From positions 4,323 to 68,322 of the forward strand of contig JBDIVK010000012.1 in the NCBI GenBank assembly GCA_039794425.1: a stretch of 64,000 nt of DNA, written 5' to 3'. The position numbers and the translations under genes are program-made. This DNA comes from Nitrosomonas sp. GTDB lineage: Bacteria; Pseudomonadota; Gammaproteobacteria; Burkholderiales; Nitrosomonadaceae. Numbering within the stretch: the stretch's first letter is position 1; every line of letters begins with the position of its first letter. The notes below the pieces were generated by a model that saw only the letters and a program-made list of their open reading frames with translations, had not been told where the DNA came from and did not search any database. Positions 10,799-48,215 of the stretch are shown here, one piece after another.

Positions 10799-11860
10799 TC
10801 AACCAGGCTCGATCGGCAGATTCTGCAAACCATAAGCAGTATTCCGGGGGTTATAAGTAAAAAGACTTTCTCCATCACGTTTGACGACACTCTCATGCAT
10901 CATTTCGTTGATACCGGCCTTATCAGCGCCGATATCTTCATGTAATTGCCCGATAGGTCTTAAATAAGCACCAAATATCTTATAAGCCGAAGAGTAAGAA
11001 TCGACTAACTGACCACGATAATTCTCCTGCAGCTTTTTCGGGTCGCTTAAATAAGTCTGATCGAATTCAAGCCCTCTCAGTTCGGCTTTTTTGAGCATCC
11101 ATACCAAGGCTGTATCAGATAACCCTGCATCTTTATATCCCCCACCGACATTCGAATGGGCACCAGAAAACCAAACCTGCTTCATTTCCTTACAATCATT
11201 AACCTTAGTCCAAATGCTGGGCCGGAATGGCTCGCGACGTTCATCTACTGCTAACGCATGATATGCATAATCAGCATTACGTAATTCTGTATCATGAAAA
11301 CTTACCCACAATTTGCGGCTTATCCAACCCAGTAGAGGAGTCGGTGCTCCTAATGCACCTACAGTATCCCAGACACCGATAAACTTGAAGCGAGGTGTAA
11401 TGGCTCGGGCTTTCAACGTCTCAACCCTCGCAAAGTTTTTATGATGAGGGCGCTTGGCTGGTGATTCCCGATACAGATCGTATAACAGGTCGAGTTGTCC
11501 CAGTTCCTGCTCGGCAAGTAACCCGAAACTGGTTACAAAACCGACAAAAGAGCGAACAGTATAAGCACCGCGACTGAAGCCAAAACAGTAAATCTCATCA
11601 CCTTGCTGGTAGTGCCGAGCAAGAAACTGATAACAATCCTTGATATTTCTCGAAATCCCCATACCGGTAGCCCCTCCGATATATTTATCGATGAAACCAC
11701 CATTAGTACCAATACCTTGGTCATAAAATACCAGCTGTTGTACTTGTCGGGAATCAATCGGCAGGAGTGCTTCTTTCAACTTACAAACATTGGTCGGTAT
11801 GACTTGATCGAGAGTATTCCAAGTCCCATCGCATAAAATCACTATTTTTTTGCCGCTCAT
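10799..11860 (-). CDS. DUF2235 alpha/beta hydrolase (Tle1-like phospholipase domain)
   Basis: ILCDGTWN, the nucleophile elbow GFSRGAY, GVWDTVG, and WFSGAHSNVGGGY. Confidence 0.85.
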   Translation of the reverse strand: MSGKKIVILCDGTWNTLDQVIPTNVCKLKEALLPIDSRQVQQLVFYDQGIGTNGGFIDKYIGGATGMGISRNIKDCYQFLARHYQQGDEIYCFGFSRGAYTVRSFVGFVTSFGLLAEQELGQLDLLYDLYRESPAKRPHHKNFARVETLKARAITPRFKFIGVWDTVGALGAPTPLLGWISRKLWVSFHDTELRNADYAYHALAVDERREPFRPSIWTKVNDCKEMKQVWFSGAHSNVGGGYKDAGLSDTALVWMLKKAELRGLEFDQTYLSDPKKLQENYRGQLVDSYSSAYKIFGAYLRPIGQLHEDIGADKAGINEMMHESVVKRDGESLFTYNPRNTAYGLQNLPIEPG

Positions 11861-23956: not shown

Positions 23957-24097
23957 CATTCTCCTTGTTAGAAAAATACAAAAATCCCTTCGCTGCCCGT
24001 TTCCGGCCAAATTTGGTCATGAGCTGCGCAAATGATAAACTCAATCGGCTATGGCATAAATACCAAGTGCTCACAGTCTCTCGTTCAAGGAACCACC

Positions 24098-26950
24098 ATG
24101 ACCCATAATTTATTCAATACGTTAAGTACTCTGAATCTTTCCAGTGGCAAAACGATGCAATTTTACGCTCTACCGGCACTTGAAACAGCCGGATTGGGAA
24201 CGATCTCACGCTTGCCGGTCTCGATCCGGATCGTACTGGAATCGGTATTACGTAATTACGACGAAAAGAAAATCACCGAAACGCATATCAGACAACTGGC
24301 CGGCTGGCAACCGCAGGCTCCGCGTACGCACGAGATTCCGTTTATAGTGGCGCGCATCGTGCTGCAGGACTTCACTGGCGTACCGCTGCTGGTCGACTTG
24401 GCTGCCATGCGCAGCGCCGCACAGAAACTGGGCAAAAATCCTGAATCGATCGAGCCTCTGGTGCCTGTCGATCTGGTAGTTGATCATTCGGTACAAGTCG
24501 ATTATTACGGTAACGATCGGGCATTGATGCGCAACATGGAAATGGAATTTCAGCGTAATCAGGAGCGTTATCAGTTTATCAAATGGGGCATGCAGGCGTT
24601 TGACACTTTTGGAGTAGTTCCGCCCGGCATTGGCATTGTTCACCAGGTCAATCTGGAATATCTGGCCCGCGGCGTCCACCAAAAGGATGGGTTGATTTAT
24701 CCTGACACGCTGGTCGGTACCGACTCTCACACCACCATGATCAATGGTATCGGTGTCGTCGGATGGGGAGTAGGCGGGATCGAAGCTGAAGCAGGCATGC
24801 TGGGGCAGCCGGTCTATTTTCTTACACCGGATGTAGTTGGTGTCAATCTGACCGGACGGTTGCGGGAAGGTGTCACCGCCACCGATCTGGTACTGACTGT
24901 CACGGAAATGCTGCGCCGGGCCAATGTCGTGGGTAAATTCGTGGAATTTTTTGGCGAAGGTACCGCTTCGCTGAGTCTGCCGGATCGTGCCACGATCGCC
25001 AACATGGCCCCCGAGTATGGCGCGACTATGGGATTCTTCCCGGTAGATGACGCAACGCTCACCTATTTCAGACATACCGGCCGTACGGAAGAAGAAATCG
25101 ATGCGTTTGAACGTTATTTCAAGGCACAGGAATTATTCGGTATGCCGCGCCATGGAGACATCGATTACAGTCAGGAGCTCACGCTGGATCTGGATTCGAT
25201 CATACCTTCACTGGCCGGGCCCAAACGTCCGCAGGATCGCATTGCACTCGAAGACTTGAAATCAAGTTTCATCGAACTTTTCAGCAAACCTGTCAAAGAA
25301 AACGGATACGGTAAGCCAGCTGAAACGTTGGAAAAAACTTATATCACTCGCGACAGTCGTTATTCGGATGCTAATCTCTGTATCACACCCGACAGTAGTC
25401 AAAATGAATCGGCACTGCCACCGGGAAGTGAGCGTAATGTAGTCGAAATGGCCAATGATCATCCTACCCAGCAGACCGTCACTGATAACATACCGGCCGA
25501 GGTACAAAGGATCGAACTGCATCACGGCGATATACTGATCGCAGCGATTACCTCCTGTACCAATACGTCCAACCCAACCGTTCTGATCGCTGCTGGATTG
25601 CTGGCCAAAAAAGCCGTGGAACAAGGGTTGACAGTCAAACCACATATCAAGACTTCACTGGCCCCGGGCTCACGTGTCGTTACGGAATATCTCACTGCTG
25701 CTGGTCTGTTACCTTATCTTGAGCGCCTCGGCTTCAGCCTGGCCGGTTACGGCTGTACGACCTGTATCGGAAACTCCGGACCACTGTCGGAAATCATCGA
25801 AGAAACCGTCGTCAAAGATGATCTGATATGTGCAGCAGTATTGTCCGGTAACCGCAATTTTGAAGCAAGAATTCATCCCAATATCCGCGCCAATTTTCTT
25901 GCGTCGCCCCCGCTGGTGGTGGCTTATGCAATCGCAGGAACCGTCCTGAAAGATCTGATAAACGAACCATTGGGATGGGGAAAAGATGGTCAACCTGTAT
26001 GGCTGCACGATATCTGGCCGAGCAGTACGGAAATTGAATCCATGATGAAGTTTGCCACCCGGGCAGAAACGTTCCGTCGCCTGTACAGCGACTTTACCCA
26101 GGATCACCCGCTCTGGAACAACGTGACCTCAGTCACCGGCAAACTGTATAACTGGCCGGATTCCACCTATATAGCAGAACCTCCGTTCTTCCAGGATTTT
26201 TCTCTGCAAATCGATCCTGCAACCATACCAACTGAAATCCGCGGTGCACGCGCTCTGGCGATTTTCGGTGATTCGGTTACGACCGATCACATCAGCCCGG
26301 CGGGAGCCATCAAAGAAACCTCACCGGCGGGGCAATATCTGCTCGCTAATGGTGTAACTCGCGCGGATTTCAATAGCTATGGCTCCCGCCGCGGGAATCA
26401 CCACATCATGATGCGTGGTACCTTTGCCAACGTGCGTATCAGAAACCTGATGGTTCCCGGCAGCGAAGGAGGCATTACGCTATACCGGAATGGTAGCGAT
26501 AGTGACGAAGAGAAAATGACTATCTTTGATGCGGCCATGAAATATCTTGAAAATGAAATACCTACTATTGTATTTGCCGGCAAGGAATATGGCACCGGTT
26601 CCAGCCGCGATTGGGCTGCCAAAGGTACACAACTACTGGGTGTACGTGCAGTGATTGCAGAAAGCTTCGAACGCATCCATCGCAGTAATCTGGTTGGGAT
26701 GGGCGTTCTGCCCTTACAGTTCAAAGACGGCGATACTGTCAGCTCTCTTGGAATCCAGGGAAACGAACACTTTGATATTCTGGGCCTGGATAACATTCAG
26801 CCGCAACAGGAAGTAATACTGATCATCCATAATCAGGATGGATCCAAGCGGGAAATCAAATTACGCTGTCGGATTGATACCCCCATCGAAGTCGATTATT
26901 ACCATCATGGCGGTATTCTGCCCTATGTACTGAGAAGAGCTTGCGAGTAA
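24098..26950 (+). CDS. acnA: Aconitate hydratase A
   Basis: [55 protein letters not shown]. Confidence 0.97.
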
Positions 26951-26977: not shown

Positions 26978-27011
26978 CTTCCGGAGTGCTTGGCACTCCG
27001 GAAGTTTCTTT
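26978..27011 (+). terminator. Intrinsic terminator after acnA
   Basis: 12-bp perfect stem CTTCCGGAGTGC/GCACTCCGGAAG followed by TTTCTTT. Confidence 0.8.
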
Positions 27012-27360: not shown

Positions 27361-27566
27361 TGCCCCAATCTGATTGGTAACGTCGTCCATTTTTCTAAAA
27401 TACCAGTTCCCGCGCACTCGAATTTAAATCTCTATGAAATAAACTTTTCCAGTTTCTGTACCGTGCTACTAATGTGCTCGTGTATTGGTTGATCATGGCA
27501 TTCAACTCAATTAAACATGTATTCCGGTATGCGGCACAACGTCGTATTTAATTTGTTGGAGAAATA

Positions 27567-28517
27567 ATGAGCCACACATTGTATGAAACCAAAACTCAGC
27601 GTGTGCAGCGCTGTGAGCTGGCTGTTCCGGGTTCCCGCCCTGAAATGTTCGAAAAAGCGCTGAACAGCGGAGTAGATTTCGTATTTCTGGATCTGGAAGA
27701 TGCAGTCGCACCTGATGACAAAATACAGGCGCGCAGAAATATCATCCAGGCGATCAATGATCTGGACTGGAAAGGACACGACATCACCCTTTCTGTACGC
27801 ATCAACGGTCTGGATACCCAATACATGGTGCGTGACGTAGTCGATCTAGTCGAACAGGCTGGACACAAAATCGATACCCTGCTGGTTCCTAAAGTCGGAG
27901 TTTACGCCGATGTCTATATGGTGGAAGCCATGCTCAACCAGCTTGAAATGCAGCAGGGACTGAAAAATCGGATCGGTGTGGAAGCACTGATTGAAACCGC
28001 ACTGGGAATGGCCAATGTCGAAGATATTGCGCGCAGAGGGACGGCAGGACGCCTGGAAGCGCTGCACTTCGGGGTAGCCGATTATGCCGCCAGCAATCGC
28101 GCCCGCACTACCAATATCGGTGGACTCAATCCGGACTACCCGGGTGACCAATGGCATGCAGCAATCAGCAGAATGACAGTGGCCTGCCGTGCATTCGGCT
28201 TGCGACCCATCGATGGTCCTTTTGGCGATATTCAGGACCCGGAAGGTTATAAACAGGCCGCCAGACGGGCTGCGGCACTGGGCTGCGAGGGGAAATGGGC
28301 GATTCATCCGTCCCAGATCAGTCTAGCAAATGAAGTCTTTACACCACCTGCTGCGGAAATTGAGAAAGCCAAGCGGATACTCACTGCGCTGAAAGAAGCC
28401 GCTGCGCAGGGGAAAGGTGCTGCCTCGCTCGACGGACGGCTGATTGACGCCGCATCGGAAAGAATGGCCAACAATATCGTCAAAATGGCAGAAGCCATCG
28501 CTGCTAAAAGCAAATAA
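27567..28517 (+). CDS. mcl: L-malyl-CoA / beta-methylmalyl-CoA lyase (CitE-like HpcH/HpaI family)
   Basis: RCELAVPGS, FLDLEDAVAPDDK.QAR.NII.AINDLDW, VRINGLDT, GKWAIHPSQI; closely resembles methylotroph and Rhodobacter Mcl. Confidence 0.85.
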   Translation: MSHTLYETKTQRVQRCELAVPGSRPEMFEKALNSGVDFVFLDLEDAVAPDDKIQARRNIIQAINDLDWKGHDITLSVRINGLDTQYMVRDVVDLVEQAGHKIDTLLVPKVGVYADVYMVEAMLNQLEMQQGLKNRIGVEALIETALGMANVEDIARRGTAGRLEALHFGVADYAASNRARTTNIGGLNPDYPGDQWHAAISRMTVACRAFGLRPIDGPFGDIQDPEGYKQAARRAAALGCEGKWAIHPSQISLANEVFTPPAAEIEKAKRILTALKEAAAQGKGAASLDGRLIDAASERMANNIVKMAEAIAAKSK

Positions 28518-28581
28518 ACATAGTCTTATCCAATTCCATACAGCCTTGCTGTAGGATTCTGGAAAATAAAGGGAGAACACA

Positions 28582-29757
28582 TTGGATATCCACGAATATC
28601 AGGCCAAGGAAATCCTGGCTGAATACGGTATCAAACTAGCCGAAGGTGGTCTGGCACATACCGTGGAAGAAGCAGTCCAGCGTAGCCGGGAAATCGACGG
28701 TAACGTCTGGGTTGTCAAAGCGCAAATTCATTCCGGTGCACGCGGCAAAGCCGGTGGCATCAAAGTATGCCGAAATCATGAAGAAATCGAAACGGCTGCC
28801 GAATCGCTACTTGGTAAACGATTGGTCACCCATCAGACCGGGCCGCTGGGTAAACTTTGCTCGAAGCTGTATATCGAAGCGGGCACCGATATTGCCAAGG
28901 AATTATATCTTGCATTTATGATCGACCGCAGTCATGAACGGGTCATCATGGTTGGCTCAGCCCAAGGGGGAATGGATATCGAAACCCTGGCAGCCACCAA
29001 TCCCGATGCCATCAAAAAAATCTACATAGAACCTGCCGTAGGCTTGCAGGACTTCCAGGCAAGAAAAATGGCCTTCGCACTGGGACTGGGCGAGGAATTG
29101 CTCAATCACGCCGTCAAAACCATCAAGAGCTGTTACCGTGCCTTACGTAACCTAGACGCCAACATACTCGAAATCAATCCGCTGGTCGTCACTCGCAACA
29201 ACGAACTGATCGCACTCGATGCGAAAATGAGCTTCGACGAGAATGCTCTGTTCAGACGCCACCGAATATCCGAATTACGTGACAATACACAGGTCGACCC
29301 GCGCGAAGTGGCTGCAGCAGAAGCCGGTCTCAGCTATGTCGGACTGGATGGGGATATCGGCTGCATGATCAATGGTGCAGGACTTGCGATGGCCACTATG
29401 GACATGATCAAGCTGGCCGGTGGCGAACCGGCCAATTTTCTGGATGTTGGCGGAGGTGCCTCTGCTGAACGGACTGAAAAAGCCTTCCGGCTGGTACTGG
29501 CTGATCAAGGCGTCAAAGCGATGCTAGTCAATATTTTTGCCGGTATTAATCGCTGTGACTGGATTGCTGAAGGCGTAGTACAAGCGGTACGAAACATCGA
29601 CATGACCATCCCGCTGGTTGTCCGCCTCTCCGGCACTAATGTAGAGGAAGGCCGTCGCATCATCGCCGACAGTGGCTTACCGATCATCACGGCGGAAACC
29701 CTGGCCGATGCGGCAGAAAAAGTAGTGCAGGCACGTAATCAAGTGGTTGCAGGTTGA
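28582..29757 (+). CDS. mtkA: Malate--CoA ligase (malate thiokinase) beta subunit
   Basis: SucC fold with MtkA-type features: [32 protein letters not shown]; adjacent to mcl. Confidence 0.82.
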
Positions 29758-29785
29758 TACAACACGAAACGAAAGGAACAGAAAA

Positions 29786-30673
29786 GTGGCAATTTTGATC
29801 AATGAGCAAACACGCATCATCGTGCAAGGTTTTACCGGCCGGATCGGTACCTTCCATGCTCAGGAAATGATTGATTACGGGTCCAATGTCGTGGGAGGTG
29901 TGACGCCAGGTAAAGGTGGACAGAAACATCTGGGTCTGCCCGTATTCAATACAGTCAAGGAAGCCGTCGAACAGGTTGGAGCAGAAGCCAGCATCGTATT
30001 CGTACCCCCTGCCTTTGCAGCCGATTCGATCATGGAAGCAGCCGATGCGGGTATCAAGTACTGCGTTTCAATTACTGACGGCATCCCCACCCAGGATATG
30101 ATGACAGTCAAAAACTTTTTACGTCGATTCCCGAAAGCAAGCAGAATGATGCTGACCGGCCCTAACTGTTCGGGCACGATCAGCCCGGGACGTGCAATGC
30201 TCGGAATCATGCCGGGGCATATCTATACACGTGGCATAGTCGGCGTAGTCGGCCGTTCCGGAACACTGGGCTATGAAGCGGCAGATCAAATGAGGCGATT
30301 GAATATCGGTATTTCCACCTCGGTCGGGATCGGCGGAGACCCCATCATCGGCAGTTCTCATCGCGATGTCTTAGAGAAATTGGAGCAAGATACTGAAACC
30401 AAGGTCGCTCTGATGATCGGAGAAATTGGTGGCCCGATGGAAGTCGAGGCCGGTCTATTTGCCAAAGAAAACATGAGTAAACCCCTGATCGCCTATATCG
30501 CGGGGCTAACAGCACCAACCGGCCGGCGAATGGGACATGCCGGGGCAATCATTTCCTCAGCCGGTGAAAGTGCAGCGGAAAAAGTGGAACGGTTGAAAGA
30601 ATTGGGTGTAACCATCTGCCCGACTCCTTCGCTCATGGGACAAACAGTCGCCGAAGTACTGGCCAGGCTCTGA
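29786..30673 (+). CDS. mtkB: Malate--CoA ligase alpha subunit (SucD-like)
   Basis: GTG start giving MAILINEQTRIIVQGFTG; GPNC, SGTL, and the phospho-His motif RMGHAGAI. Confidence 0.82.
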   Translation: MAILINEQTRIIVQGFTGRIGTFHAQEMIDYGSNVVGGVTPGKGGQKHLGLPVFNTVKEAVEQVGAEASIVFVPPAFAADSIMEAADAGIKYCVSITDGIPTQDMMTVKNFLRRFPKASRMMLTGPNCSGTISPGRAMLGIMPGHIYTRGIVGVVGRSGTLGYEAADQMRRLNIGISTSVGIGGDPIIGSSHRDVLEKLEQDTETKVALMIGEIGGPMEVEAGLFAKENMSKPLIAYIAGLTAPTGRRMGHAGAIISSAGESAAEKVERLKELGVTICPTPSLMGQTVAEVLARL

Positions 30674-46604: not shown

Positions 46605-48215
46605 TCAATAACCGGGGTCATACATCAAGGTTTGTACATAAGTTTCCAGATCATCAGGCAAATCCACAGTTGCCAGTCCTTCTTGCTGCGCCACACGGCA
46701 GACTTCTACCGCAATTGCCAGTGAAACATTACGTACCCGTGTCAGGTTCGGATAAATTGATCCACGTTCAATTTCTTCAGGCAGCACTCTGTCTGCCAGT
46801 ACTTTGGCTGCCGCCAGAAACATACGCTCAACCACTAGTCTTGCACAGCTGGCCAGCACCCCCAATCCTACACCGGGAAAAATATAAGCATTGTTACCTT
46901 GTGCAGGTTGATAAAGCCGTTCACCCAATACTACAGCTGGAAACGGACTGCCACTGGCAAAAACTGCCCGGCCATCACTCCACCGGTAAGCCTGTTCCGC
47001 AGTGCATTCCGTATGTGAAGTCGGATTGGAAAGTGCAATAATGACAGGACGTTCCTGGTATTGTGCCATTTGACGAATGACAGCTTCATCGAATGCACCT
47101 GCAGCACCCGTTGCACCGATCAGAATATCCGGTCGAATACTGGCGATCGCTTCGACGAAACTGACTGGAGCATGCTCCCGCGCGAAAGGCCGGATACGTG
47201 GCTTCAATTGCTCGCGTGCCTTGATGACCAACCCCTGTCTGTCTACGAAAGTTATTCTGGAACGTGCCTGTGTTTCATCCAAACCGACCGACATGAATGC
47301 TGACAACATCAGCTCAGCAATACCGGTTGCAGCCGAACCGGTTCCCAGCAGCATAATTTTCAGATCGGCAAACCGTTTATGTGTGATACGACAGGAAGCG
47401 TGAATGCCGGCCAATGTGACTGCCGCTGTTCCCTGAATATCATCGTTAAAACAACGAACCCGTTGCTGGTAACGGTCTAACAAAGCAAATGCATTCTGGC
47501 TATTGAAATCTTCGAACTGAATCAGCGCATCTGGAAATTTATGCTGTATCGCCTGGACGAATTCATCAACCAGCGACAAATAATCCTGCCCAGTCAGCCG
47601 TGGATAAGGATAGCCGAGATAGAGCGGATCGTCCCTTAACACCTGATTATTAGTCCCTACATCCAGCATGACCGGCATACAACGGGCCGGATGGATGCCG
47701 GCACAGGCCACATATAACGCAATTTTACCAATCGGAATGCCCATGCCGTTTGCACCCAGATCCCCGAGTCCCAGGATACGTTCCCCGTCCGTTACCACGA
47801 TAATGCGCACATCGATTTCTGGCCAGTTCTCGAGTAGAGACGCAATTTTTCCCCGATCCATGGGTGTGACGTAAAAGCCCTGCGGTTTTCTGAAAATATG
47901 CGCAAATTCCTTGCACGCTTCTCCTACTGTGGGCGTATAGACGAGCGGCATGATTTCCTCGATATGATCGATCAGCGTGCGGTAAAATAAATGCTGGTTG
48001 CGATCGAGCAACCCATTCAGAAAAATATATTTTTCGATATCACTGTTTTTTACGCGCAGGTTACCCAGTACTCTCTGCTGTTGCTTCCTGATATCCATCA
48101 CACCATAAGGCAGCAGACCCTGCAAACCATGGCACTCACGCTCCTCCCGGGTAAATGCGGTAGATTTATTTTGTGCCGGATCATCCAGTAATGCTTTTCC
48201 ATGCAATGGTTTCAT
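46605..48215 (-). CDS. maeA: NAD(P)-dependent malic enzyme (SfcA/MaeA type)
   Basis: PLVYTPTVG, VVTDGERILGLGDLG, QFEDF, FNDDIQGT, ALSNPT. Confidence 0.92.
   Translation of the reverse strand: MKPLHGKALLDDPAQNKSTAFTREERECHGLQGLLPYGVMDIRKQQQRVLGNLRVKNSDIEKYIFLNGLLDRNQHLFYRTLIDHIEEIMPLVYTPTVGEACKEFAHIFRKPQGFYVTPMDRGKIASLLENWPEIDVRIIVVTDGERILGLGDLGANGMGIPIGKIALYVACAGIHPARCMPVMLDVGTNNQVLRDDPLYLGYPYPRLTGQDYLSLVDEFVQAIQHKFPDALIQFEDFNSQNAFALLDRYQQRVRCFNDDIQGTAAVTLAGIHASCRITHKRFADLKIMLLGTGSAATGIAELMLSAFMSVGLDETQARSRITFVDRQGLVIKAREQLKPRIRPFAREHAPVSFVEAIASIRPDILIGATGAAGAFDEAVIRQMAQYQERPVIIALSNPTSHTECTAEQAYRWSDGRAVFASGSPFPAVVLGERLYQPAQGNNAYIFPGVGLGVLASCARLVVERMFLAAAKVLADRVLPEEIERGSIYPNLTRVRNVSLAIAVEVCRVAQQEGLATVDLPDDLETYVQTLMYDPGY

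Follow-up and report, generated by a model that had tools for sequence, protein, structure and literature searches.

A near-universal malyl-CoA lyase and malate-CoA ligase operon in the Nitrosomonadaceae and its possible role in central carbon metabolism

The window analysed here is a 64,000-nucleotide stretch of DNA from a Nitrosomonas genome. The host is close to N. halophila. Three co-oriented open reading frames occupy window positions 27567-28517 (316 aa), 28582-29757 (391 aa) and 29747-30673, exactly where a sequence-only reading of this DNA had placed a malyl-CoA lyase followed by a two-subunit, MtkA-like CoA ligase, and those identities are supported by the comparisons given below. The features of the locus are as follows.

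26978-27004, + strand: terminator-like hairpin 3' of acnA, with a 12-bp stem, 8 of whose pairs are G-C, and a T-rich 3' tail
27374-27401, + strand: weak candidate sigma-70-like promoter upstream of mcl, from a consensus match alone (9 of 12 hexamer positions)
27567-28517, + strand: mcl, predicted L-malyl-CoA/beta-methylmalyl-CoA lyase, 316 aa (PF03328, PDB matches, aligned ligand residues)
28582-29757, + strand: mtkA, predicted malate-CoA ligase (malate thiokinase) beta subunit, 391 aa, TTG start (NF010647, tree)
29786-30673, + strand: mtkB, predicted malate-CoA ligase alpha subunit, 295 aa, GTG start (SucD-type models, MGHAGA)

Ribosome-binding sites precede all three genes, with GGAGA ahead of the mcl ATG. 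The longest reading frame for mtkB opens with a TTG at 29747, and the GTG at 29786 is the most likely start, judged from an AAGGAA ribosome-binding site and from agreement with the starts of aligned orthologues. The candidate promoter is a mere lead because such sites are no commoner in the region than in shuffled sequence. The mcl unit is bounded on its upstream side by the hairpin, and the mcl-mtkA-mtkB order is preserved wherever flanks permit among 80 loci from many phyla. The earlier description of the module as lying right after acnA holds in that acnA (24032-26950) is upstream, but the hairpin and a 616-nt spacer intervene, and, as acnA neighbours these genes in 0 of the 80 related loci examined, the adjacency is incidental. 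Positions 27567-30673 constitute a self-contained mcl-mtkA-mtkB operon. None of hpr, sga, gck or icl was found in the window, in line with the same reading.

The product of mcl has the HpcH/HpaI (CitE-like) TIM-barrel domain (Pfam PF03328, 128.3 bits, residues 19-248) with a C-terminal PF15617 domain. Residues R78, E143 and D172, situated in the motifs SVRINGLD, LIETA and GVADYAAS, align with R76, E141 and D168 of R. sphaeroides Mcl1, the Mg2+ and substrate ligands of that enzyme. The best solved relative in the PDB is the malyl-CoA lyase of Methylobacterium extorquens (5ugr, 388 bits, full length); R. sphaeroides Mcl1 (4l9y) scores 311 bits, the Chloroflexus-type Mcl 173, CitE at most 121 and malate synthase 46. 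By these scores, in a comparison set without an Mcl2 sequence, the nearest enzymes are Mcl1/MclA and not CitE, and no second CitE/Mcl2-type gene, a possible malyl-CoA thioesterase, was found in the genome. The best NCBIfam match is RipC at 180 bits (cut-off 375), a haloarchaeal model scores 138 (cut-off 500), no bacterial Mcl equivalog is among the matches, and orthologues carry merely the NCBI label "CoA ester lyase". That the lyase falls below every NCBIfam equivalog cut-off would suit an enzyme acting on another CoA ester, as would the fact that known Mcl enzymes also cleave beta-methylmalyl-CoA; the margin of the characterised Mcl enzymes over CitE argues against it. The protein is a predicted malyl-CoA lyase (Mcl/MclA, EC 4.1.3.24), interconverting malyl-CoA with acetyl-CoA and glyoxylate.

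The two ligase subunits share their fold, subunit architecture and phosphohistidine motif with succinyl-CoA synthetase (SucCD): the beta subunit combines PF08442 (ATP-grasp) with PF00549, and the alpha subunit combines PF02629 (CoA_binding) with PF00549 (Ligase_CoA) and carries MGHAGA at residues 249-254. Against a curated model, however, the beta subunit scores 701.9 bits on NF010647, "malate--CoA ligase subunit beta" (cut-off 604), and only 537.6 on the poorer-matching SucC model, whereas the genome's own SucC reaches 533.7 bits on NF010647, below the cut-off. That SucC is part of a separate, true sucCD on another contig (C29), 3' of a histidine kinase gene, and the window subunits are 52.8 % (MtkA) and 45.8 % (MtkB) identical to its products. 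In the beta-subunit tree the window protein falls inside the MtkA clade, with SucC outside on a long branch, so that tree and cut-off agree with the earlier view of the ligase as MtkA-like rather than SucC-like. Fourteen positions distinguish 69 MtkA from 9 family SucC sequences, and the motif FAGINRCDW of MtkA corresponds to FGGI(M/V)RCD in SucC. Seven of the 14 fall at residues 275 to 327 of the C-terminal CoA-ligase domain, which in succinyl-CoA synthetase contains the succinate site. A second succinyl-CoA synthetase isozyme might be read from the UniProt/UniRef label "Succinate--CoA ligase" on the orthologues and from MtkB, which matches SucD-type alpha models, no MtkB-specific alpha-subunit model being in existence. 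Opposed to this are the curated cut-off, the location of the conserved substitutions, and a gene order identical to that of the serine-cycle clusters of Hyphomicrobium and methanotrophs. The 95 % identical N. halophila MtkA is named "malate--CoA ligase subunit beta" by NCBI, and the N. multiformis MtkB orthologue is named "malate thiokinase small subunit". By these comparisons the ligase is a predicted malate-CoA ligase (MtkAB, EC 6.2.1.9), distinct from the succinyl-CoA synthetase of the TCA cycle, and together the two enzymes are predicted to catalyze malate + ATP + CoA <-> malyl-CoA + ADP + Pi <-> acetyl-CoA + glyoxylate.

These genes belong to the core repertoire of the Nitrosomonadaceae. 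MtkA exceeds its cut-off in 139 of 151 genomes of the family (137 of 149 without two unpublished genomes) and is retained even in genomes of 1.3 Mb. Beyond the family, the closest MtkA proteins are those of type I methanotrophs (Methylococcales), at 78-82 % identity; the ammonia-oxidiser clade nests within the methanotroph group in the tree, and Mcl shares one 90 %-identity cluster with Methylotuvimicrobium. This pattern suggests one old gene transfer, with type I methanotrophs as the nearest outside relatives. In methanotroph loci, hpr and sga are divergent and adjoin mcl, and the sga/hpr pair is not kept in Nitrosomonas loci. RefSeq names the MtkA gene correctly, while UniProt labels it as SucC.

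The rest of the genome sets the frame within which the operon must be understood. Two form I RuBisCO large subunits identify the host as the autotroph it had been taken for; its description as non-methylotrophic stands solely insofar as no PQQ methanol dehydrogenase was found in the genome. Glycolate dehydrogenase (GlcD, GlcE and GlcF) is encoded, with GlcF above cut-off in 145 of the 151 family genomes, and glcB is absent, malate synthase (PF01274) having no match in this genome or in any of the 151. Neither isocitrate lyase nor glyoxylate carboligase (best TIGR01504 match 348 bits, cut-off 711) was found in the genome, and hydroxypyruvate isomerase was found in 0 of 9 genomes. Also encoded are an AGXT-type alanine-glyoxylate aminotransferase (59 of 61 family genomes), the glycine cleavage P-protein gene gcvP, pyruvate dehydrogenase (PDH) E1 (aceE, in every genome tested), a 2-hydroxyacid/tartronate-semialdehyde-type reductase beside glcDEF (363 on TIGR01505, cut-off 340.75), a MOFRL protein that resembles glycerate 2-kinase but stays under the cut-offs for that enzyme (232 vs 550), a Ppc candidate (tblastn, 31 % identity over 909 residues) and, in the window at 46605-48215, an NAD-malic enzyme. 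A serine-cycle-type Sga is matched at just 31 % identity, AGXT being unrelated and of cyanobacterial type, and genes of methylotroph loci taken to be mtdA or fch have no close homologue (tblastn best 27-32 % identity or none). For SHMT, enolase and Mdh the evidence comes from relatives' published proteomes and not from this genome. The earlier proposal that the module works outside its textbook pathway calls for two qualifications: nearly all other serine-cycle-type steps have candidate genes elsewhere in the genome, and the module, far from being a peculiarity of the window, is among the annotated core genes found throughout the family.

Published proteomes of three cultured ammonia oxidisers show that these proteins are abundant. 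The study lists the ligase under a succinyl-CoA synthetase name, and its abundant "SucC/SucD" rows are read here as MtkA/MtkB from the consecutive accessions Q82TR3-5, UniRef naming and the N. multiformis names (PMC5960693, Table_7). As NSAF % in the order N. europaea, N. multiformis, N. ureae, which is not a measure of flux, Mcl stands at 0.25, 0.35 and 0.25 and MtkA at 0.26, 0.20 and 0.13, several-fold above PDH E1 (0.04, 0.04, 0.02), citrate synthase (0.07 in all three) and true SucC (0.04, 0.03, 0.04), with SucCD 3-10 times scarcer than the window ligase's counterparts (PMC5960693). AGXT (0.29, 0.27, 0.18), SHMT (0.25, 0.12, 0.11) and GcvP (0.12, 0.14, 0.21) are likewise well represented; Mdh and enolase are also detected, and phosphoglycolate phosphatase reaches 0.07-0.10 % (PMC5960693). 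The GlcD/E-like oxidase is found at 0.006 and 0.016 and is not detected in N. ureae, 20-50 times below Mcl and MtkA, a ratio in which membrane-associated GlcDEF is likely under-counted (PMC5960693). Ppc and Mdh are 3-10 times scarcer than Mcl and MtkA, malic enzyme has no row in the orthologue table, and no C1 substrate supply is reported for the cultures (PMC5960693).

Besides SucCD, four known systems come closest. Serine-cycle methylotrophs such as Methylobacterium extorquens and Hyphomicrobium use the same MclA and MtkAB enzymes in the same gene order, with Hyphomicrobium MtkA 64-66 % identical to that of Nitrosomonas. Here, in contrast, they occur in an ammonia oxidiser that uses the Calvin cycle and in which no methanol dehydrogenase was found, and the operon stands alone, lacking the sga, hpr, ppc and mtdA/fch neighbours; the full module set of the C1-assimilating serine cycle (methanol dehydrogenase, mtdA/fch, sga-hpr-gck) was not found, although analogous AGXT, glycerate kinase and reductases exist. 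Type I (RuMP) methanotrophs (Methylomonas, Methylobacter, Methylotuvimicrobium, Methylococcus MCA1739-1741), the nearest outside relatives, have a partial serine cycle and, like the ammonia oxidisers, hold the module beside another main carbon assimilation cycle (PMC517821). The ammonia oxidisers differ in having kept only the three genes, in an AGXT 31 % identical to methanotroph Sga, and in obtaining glyoxylate additionally from RuBisCO oxygenation. In the synthetic malyl-CoA-glycerate pathway of 2018, Ppc, Mdh, Mtk and Mcl cleave a C4 acid to acetyl-CoA and glyoxylate beside the Calvin cycle, and glycolate dehydrogenase, glycerate kinase and a reductase of the tartronate-semialdehyde type are coupled to them (PMC5964204). 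Candidates for most of these steps are present in this genome, with Mdh and enolase taken from relatives' proteomes; glyoxylate carboligase and hydroxypyruvate isomerase are missing, and glyoxylate recycling would need AGXT, glycine cleavage and SHMT instead. The malate cycle of Cupriavidus necator likewise operates in a Calvin-cycle chemolithoautotroph (Claassens et al. 2020, PMC7486775). Its GlcDEF, malic enzyme and PDH have counterparts in Nitrosomonas, where malate could be formed from glyoxylate and acetyl-CoA, but the defining malate synthase is absent throughout the family, and Mcl with reversed Mtk would have to substitute for it.

In this Calvin-cycle autotroph, the module would link the C4 pool with a node at glyoxylate, which may also be fed from phosphoglycolate by GlcDEF and drained by the abundant aminotransferase to glycine, the glycine cleavage system and SHMT. 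The sequence-only reading offered two roles, acetyl-CoA from malate or assimilation of glyoxylate; the gene identities and all the genomic checks that it proposed bore it out, without singling out either role. The reading preferred here, which has about an even chance of being correct, is that the main net flux in growing cells is cleavage, from PEP + HCO3- through oxaloacetate, malate and malyl-CoA to acetyl-CoA + glyoxylate, a direction drawn from protein abundance and gene content alone. Cleavage would give acetyl-CoA without the CO2 loss of PDH, plus glyoxylate for glycine, and surplus glyoxylate could be brought back to C3 through transamination, glycine cleavage, serine formation, hydroxypyruvate reduction and glycerate kinase.

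Several observations favour this direction. AGXT, SHMT and GcvP, downstream of glyoxylate, are about as abundant as Mcl and MtkA, while the GlcD/E-like oxidase that would supply glyoxylate is far scarcer; the other steps have genes here or in relatives (Ppc, AGXT, gcvP, reductase, glycerate kinase-like protein, Mdh, enolase); and the module apparently descends from methanotroph clusters with sga and hpr alongside. The methanotroph module runs in the cleavage direction. Counting against cleavage is the scarcity of the feeder enzymes Ppc and Mdh relative to Mcl and MtkA, and, with PDH E1 in every genome tested, the route is not required for acetyl-CoA. Since Mcl and Mtk are both reversible, the module could also absorb glyoxylate under high RuBisCO oxygenation. 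A further step, put forward tentatively and at less than even likelihood, is that the malyl-CoA-glycerate pathway has a natural counterpart in betaproteobacterial ammonia oxidisers. PEP + bicarbonate would be converted to acetyl-CoA + glyoxylate by Ppc, Mdh, MtkAB and Mcl, and AGXT, glycine cleavage, SHMT, hydroxypyruvate reduction and glycerate kinase would replace glyoxylate carboligase in returning glyoxylate, including that from RuBisCO oxygenation, to C3.

The main rival, a real though rather doubtful possibility, runs the same enzymes the other way as a glyoxylate sink for phosphoglycolate salvage. Glyoxylate from GlcDEF would condense with acetyl-CoA to malyl-CoA (Mcl), and Mtk in reverse would yield malate + ATP in place of malate synthase; the malate would refill the C4 pool or be decarboxylated by malic enzyme and PDH in a variant of the malate cycle. 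The lack of malate synthase, isocitrate lyase and glyoxylate carboligase and the widespread GlcDEF suit this rival just as well as cleavage. It also draws on the family counts (malate synthase in 0, GlcF in 145 and MtkA in 139 of 151), the lack of a second CitE/Mcl2-type gene as malyl-CoA thioesterase, the malic enzyme in the window and PDH in the genome, and well-expressed phosphoglycolate phosphatase. Physiological use of Mtk in the ATP-forming direction is not known from any organism, which counts against the rival, as do the scarcity of GlcD/E-like proteins, the missing malic enzyme row, and a complete alternative sink in AGXT (59 of 61 genomes), the glycine cleavage P-protein and the glycerate kinase-like gene. 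Moreover, other RuBisCO-bearing genomes of the order Burkholderiales hold malate synthase together with MtkA, so that MtkA is not merely a malate synthase replacement. The malate cycle is nevertheless an established backup for 2-phosphoglycolate in C. necator (PMC7486775).

A working serine cycle for C1 carbon is improbable. Ammonia monooxygenase would co-oxidise methane or methanol to formaldehyde and formate; methylene-H4F and glycine would give serine and then hydroxypyruvate, glycerate, PEP, oxaloacetate, malate and malyl-CoA, with glyoxylate and glycine regenerated and acetyl-CoA as product. Ammonia oxidisers do incorporate some methane and methanol carbon, the tree gives the module a methanotroph origin, and candidate genes exist for AGXT, the hydroxyacid reductase, MOFRL glycerate kinase, Ppc, MtkAB and Mcl, with SHMT, enolase and Mdh expressed in relatives. 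However, no methanol dehydrogenase was found in the genome, the mtdA/fch-type flanking genes of methylotroph loci are absent from Nitrosomonas loci, the sga/hpr pair of the donor cluster has been lost, and a pathway serving an occasional side substrate should be neither universal nor retained in genomes as small as 1.3 Mb. Expression is, further, high in cultures with no reported C1 substrate (PMC5960693). Least probable of all, on the scores and substitutions given above, is an operon unrelated to malate or glyoxylate, its ligase a second succinyl-CoA synthetase isozyme and its lyase acting on citramalyl-CoA, beta-methylmalyl-CoA or citryl-CoA.

The genes themselves are already known and annotated; their role in CO2-fixing ammonia oxidisers is a testable question. 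None of the papers searched discusses Mcl or MtkA in ammonia oxidisers, and for the N. europaea genome-scale model, the main text and the supplementary files covered contain no mention of malyl-CoA or of the enzyme. Nitrification in soils and wastewater plants is the work of ammonia oxidisers, and because these live close to the limit set by their energy supply, the way in which fixed carbon is spent matters. An operon in nearly every genome of the family, malate synthase in none, and high abundance of Mcl and MtkA together point to an overlooked high-capacity step of central metabolism. If cleavage holds, nature already has the carbon-saving shortcut that has been engineered into cyanobacteria and plants; if uptake holds, phosphoglycolate salvage would proceed without malate synthase and with ATP conserved. 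Were the counterpart of the malyl-CoA-glycerate pathway to prove true, a large share of the acetyl-CoA in these energy-starved autotrophs would arise with no CO2 lost at PDH, and current metabolic models of Nitrosomonas, in which the enzyme appears as succinyl-CoA synthetase or is left out, would miss a major flux.

The three co-oriented open reading frames at 27567-30673 have the identities that the sequence-only reading had given them, and each is preceded by a ribosome-binding site, with spacers of 64 and 28 nt between them:

ORF1: mcl, malyl-CoA lyase (Mcl), 316 aa, HpcH/HpaI fold
ORF2: mtkA, malate-CoA ligase beta subunit (MtkA), 391 aa, TTG start, 701.9 bits on the NCBI malate-CoA ligase beta equivalog (cut-off 604)
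ORF3: mtkB, the alpha subunit (MtkB) matching ORF2, start GTG 29786, MGHAGA phosphohistidine loop

The start of ORF3 was placed at GTG 29786 and not at TTG 29747 by comparison with orthologues. Mtk converts malate, ATP, and CoA reversibly to malyl-CoA, ADP, and Pi, and Mcl, likewise reversibly, cleaves malyl-CoA to acetyl-CoA and glyoxylate. The top solved relative of ORF1 is the malyl-CoA lyase of Methylobacterium extorquens (5ugr), matched end to end at 388 bits; the Rhodobacter sphaeroides enzyme (4l9y) gives 311 bits, as against at most 121 bits for citrate lyase beta subunits. Its residues R78, E143, and D172 align with R76, E141, and D168 of the Rhodobacter enzyme, which we take to be substrate and Mg2+ ligands. 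No second gene of the CitE/Mcl2 type was found in the genome; an HpcH-family gene on contig 16, considered as a possible Mcl2, was rejected as an HpaI-type aldolase in a kdsB sugar cluster.

On the SucC model, ORF2 scores 537.6 bits. In an alignment of 69 MtkA sequences with nine SucC sequences of the family, fourteen positions have a residue that at least 95 % of the MtkA sequences share and that another, invariant residue replaces in SucC; seven of these lie within residues 275-327, in the CoA-ligase domain. This stretch includes FAGINRCDW in MtkA versus FGGI(M/V)RCD in SucC, a loop that presumably forms part of the succinate site in succinyl-CoA synthetase. The fourteen positions would add small support for the identity of the ligase; the sequence matches to solved enzymes are decisive. 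The draft genome (2.89 Mb in 58 contigs, 95.6 % complete, with the window on contig 12) also has the separate sucCD for which a search had been proposed. In this true pair, which follows a histidine kinase gene on contig 29, SucC reaches 572.5 with the SucC model and 533.7 with the Mtk model, short of the cut-off of 604; identity to MtkA and MtkB of the window is 52.8 % for the beta and 45.8 % for the alpha subunit.

The position of the three genes next to acnA, by contrast, is meaningless, as acnA adjoins the operon in none of 80 related loci. Beyond the end of acnA at 26950 stands a strong terminator-like hairpin (26978-27004), within a 616-nt spacer; on these grounds, and given the unconserved adjacency, a functional link between acnA and the operon was rejected. 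The order mcl-mtkA-mtkB itself holds throughout the 80 loci wherever the flanking sequence suffices to show it; the loci are drawn from Nitrosomonas, Nitrosospira, Methylococcales, Hyphomicrobium, Mesorhizobium, Roseovarius, Gemmatimonadales, and others. In several other Nitrosomonas, mnmG-rsmG-parA-parB lies upstream of the operon, an arrangement that is uninformative.

The named relatives of the encoded proteins are from Nitrosomonas (95 % identity for N. halophila and strain ANs5, 83-92 % for others), and the assignment to this genus is based on these 83-95 % identical proteins and on the loci, not on amoA. Pfam and TIGRFAM models for amoA have no match in the 58-contig draft, but this is uninformative because the control genomes are also without a match and multi-copy amo operons are often missed by assembly; in the draft they are probably collapsed or unassembled repeats. 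The features of the wider genome that bear on malate and glyoxylate include the following:

L016:5662-9569 (a locus on contig C5 of the draft genome, G000), minus strand: glcD-glcE-glcF, an operon
L016:9460-10374 (contig C5), minus strand: tartronate-semialdehyde-reductase-type gene, TIGR01505, 363 bits (cut-off 340.75)
G000:C8:81042-84293 (contig C8), minus strand: glycine cleavage P-protein, one open frame, 1129 aa
46605-48215 of the window, minus strand: NAD-dependent malic enzyme, NF010052, 714 bits

The genome also encodes two form I RuBisCO large subunits, an alanine-glyoxylate aminotransferase (AGXT) of the cyanobacterial type (PDB 1vjo, 361 bits), a MOFRL glycerate-2-kinase-like protein, Ppc, PDH E1, and 2-oxoglutarate dehydrogenase E1. 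No malate synthase, isocitrate lyase, hydroxypyruvate isomerase, or PQQ methanol dehydrogenase was found in it, and nothing above the model cut-off for glyoxylate carboligase; thus, among the genes that the sequence-only reading had named as worth seeking, glcDEF is present and glcB is absent. The reductase-type gene lies directly upstream of glcDEF in the same orientation, and its substrate may be hydroxypyruvate or glyoxylate, since the genome lacks both glyoxylate carboligase and hydroxypyruvate isomerase. The P-protein model aligns as two segments (its positions 7-425 and 443-870) about 660 nt apart, and the protein could be a fused two-subunit form or carry a large insert. The malic enzyme gene is 16 kb from the operon and unlinked to it. 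Elsewhere in the window, an ORF at 10799-11860 on the minus strand has a T6SS Tle1-like phospholipase catalytic domain (PF09994, 264 bits) and matches no NCBIfam model.

Across the Nitrosomonadaceae, the module is nearly universal. In a sample of 151 genomes from four genera (149 without the unpublished genomes G075 and G083), 139 (137/149) encode an MtkA that passes the curated cut-off, 1.3-Mb genomes included, 145 (143/149) have a GlcF above its cut-off, and none (0/149) yielded a malate synthase; AGXT was found in 59 of 61 family genomes. Loss of PDH in small-genome relatives, which would have forced a cleavage role, was rejected, as PDH E1 is present in 12 of 12. In the wider order Burkholderiales, MtkA is patchy, occurring in 24 genomes out of 201, or 23 out of 200 if the unpublished G179 is set aside. 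Among the 18 other MtkA-bearing genomes of the order, RuBisCO and malate synthase occur in 11 each, together in several; the co-occurrence with malate synthase weakens any general rule that Mtk and Mcl simply replace that enzyme.

A phylogeny of the beta subunit, also proposed beforehand, was obtained by maximum likelihood (quick search, SH-aLRT support). In this tree, SucC of the genome falls on a very long branch, and the Nitrosomonadales MtkA sequences are monophyletic (support 98) inside a clade with support 100 common to three Methylococcales groups, the whole nested among gammaproteobacterial sequences. The simplest reading of the tree would be that the family's ancestor acquired the genes once, long ago, from a methanotroph-like gammaproteobacterium and that they were inherited vertically thereafter, with the direction of transfer resting on outgroup rooting. 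The Mcl of Nitrosospira multiformis (L037:4830-5777) belongs to a 90 %-identity cluster of 176 members that holds Nitrosospira/Nitrosovibrio and Methylotuvimicrobium proteins, an unusually high identity across two proteobacterial classes. In methanotroph loci hpr and sga adjoin mcl, whereas the ammonia oxidizers have kept only the three genes; clusters of gammaproteobacterial MAGs and of alphaproteobacteria also have ppc, which the ammonia-oxidizer operon lacks, and several of them have a gene family that we take to be mtdA.

Databases differ in the names they give to these proteins. For Nitrosomonas, RefSeq calls the ligase subunit "malate--CoA ligase subunit beta" and the lyase "CoA ester lyase," and UniRef/UniProt names the MtkAB orthologues of ammonia oxidizers "Succinate--CoA ligase [ADP-forming]," with the consequence that two "SucCD" pairs appear in the comparative proteomes of N. 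europaea, N. multiformis, and N. ureae (Supplementary Table 7, PMC5960693). One is among three consecutive accessions including Q82TR4 "SucC" and Q82TR3 "SucD"; the other, Q82Y39 and Q82Y38, adjoins the histidine kinase Q82Y40 (PMC5960693). As the true sucCD of the present genome is arranged like the latter, we infer, from gene order and naming and not from sequence comparison, that Q82TR3-5 are MtkB, MtkA, and Mcl. By this assignment, Mtk accounts for the more abundant of the two "SucCD" pairs; the proteins in question receive no discussion in the paper. For the present strain, a search for RNA evidence listed no RNA data set, and only two runs contained 6 % of the sequence words sampled.

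Abundance (NSAF %) in N. europaea / N. multiformis / N. ureae (PMC5960693), with Mcl, MtkA, and MtkB as assigned here
Mcl: 0.25 / 0.35 / 0.25
MtkA: 0.26 / 0.20 / 0.13
MtkB: 0.06 / 0.07 / 0.07
True SucC: 0.04 / 0.03 / 0.04
PDH E1: 0.04 / 0.04 / 0.02
Citrate synthase: 0.07 / 0.07 / 0.06
Ppc: 0.03 / 0.08 / 0.02
Mdh: 0.03 / 0.05 / 0.07
AGXT: 0.29 / 0.27 / 0.18
SHMT: 0.25 / 0.12 / 0.11
GcvP subunit 2: 0.12 / 0.14 / 0.21
Phosphoglycolate phosphatase: 0.07 / 0.10 / 0.09
GlcD/E-like oxidase: 0.006 / 0.016 / not detected
RuBisCO large subunit: 1.1 / 1.8 / 0.5 and 0.8 (two forms)

The preferred reading, with about an even chance, is that net flux through the module in this Calvin-cycle autotroph would run toward cleavage. 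PEP and HCO3- would then yield oxaloacetate, malate, and finally acetyl-CoA and glyoxylate, a route that would spare the CO2 loss of PDH. The synthetic malyl-CoA-glycerate pathway has the same logic (PMC5964204), and the genome has candidates for most of its steps but none for glyoxylate carboligase. Cleavage is favored by the abundance of AGXT, SHMT, and GcvP, which take glyoxylate onward and match Mcl and MtkA, by the rarity of the glycolate-oxidizing GlcD/E-like oxidase (20-50 times below Mcl/MtkA), by the probable derivation of the module from methanotroph clusters, in which it is reported to supply glyoxylate and glycine, and by its presence beside malate synthase elsewhere in the order, so that it is not merely a stand-in for that enzyme. 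Two weaknesses are the abundance of Ppc and Mdh, which falls below that of Mcl and MtkA, and the presence of PDH in every genome tested.

The main rival, tentative and distinctly less probable, is uptake, in which acetyl-CoA would combine with glyoxylate that stems from phosphoglycolate, and reversed Mtk would set malate free while forming ATP, the two enzymes replacing the malate synthase used in the "malate cycle" of Cupriavidus (PMC7486775). The joint absence of malate synthase, isocitrate lyase, and glyoxylate carboligase beside a universal GlcDEF speaks for it, and the NAD-malic enzyme is a possible partner in such a cycle; however, AGXT and the glycine cleavage system offer a complete alternative sink for glyoxylate, and malic enzyme has no row in the published orthologue proteome table (PMC5960693). 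A serine cycle for C1 carbon from side reactions of ammonia monooxygenase is a minor alternative. Another minor one is a second succinyl-CoA synthetase beside an unrelated CoA-ester lyase, against which the matches to solved enzymes stand.

Neither the module nor its annotation is new, and the window's copy is an ordinary family member with nothing special about it. Its interest belongs to the family as a whole, in which it is nearly universal, highly expressed, and mislabelled in UniProt. A literature search found no paper on the mcl/mtk module in ammonia oxidizers, and malyl-CoA is not mentioned in the accessible text and supplementary files published with the genome-scale model of N. europaea; for the glyoxylate node of these organisms, cleavage and uptake now stand as two testable hypotheses on the role of the module.
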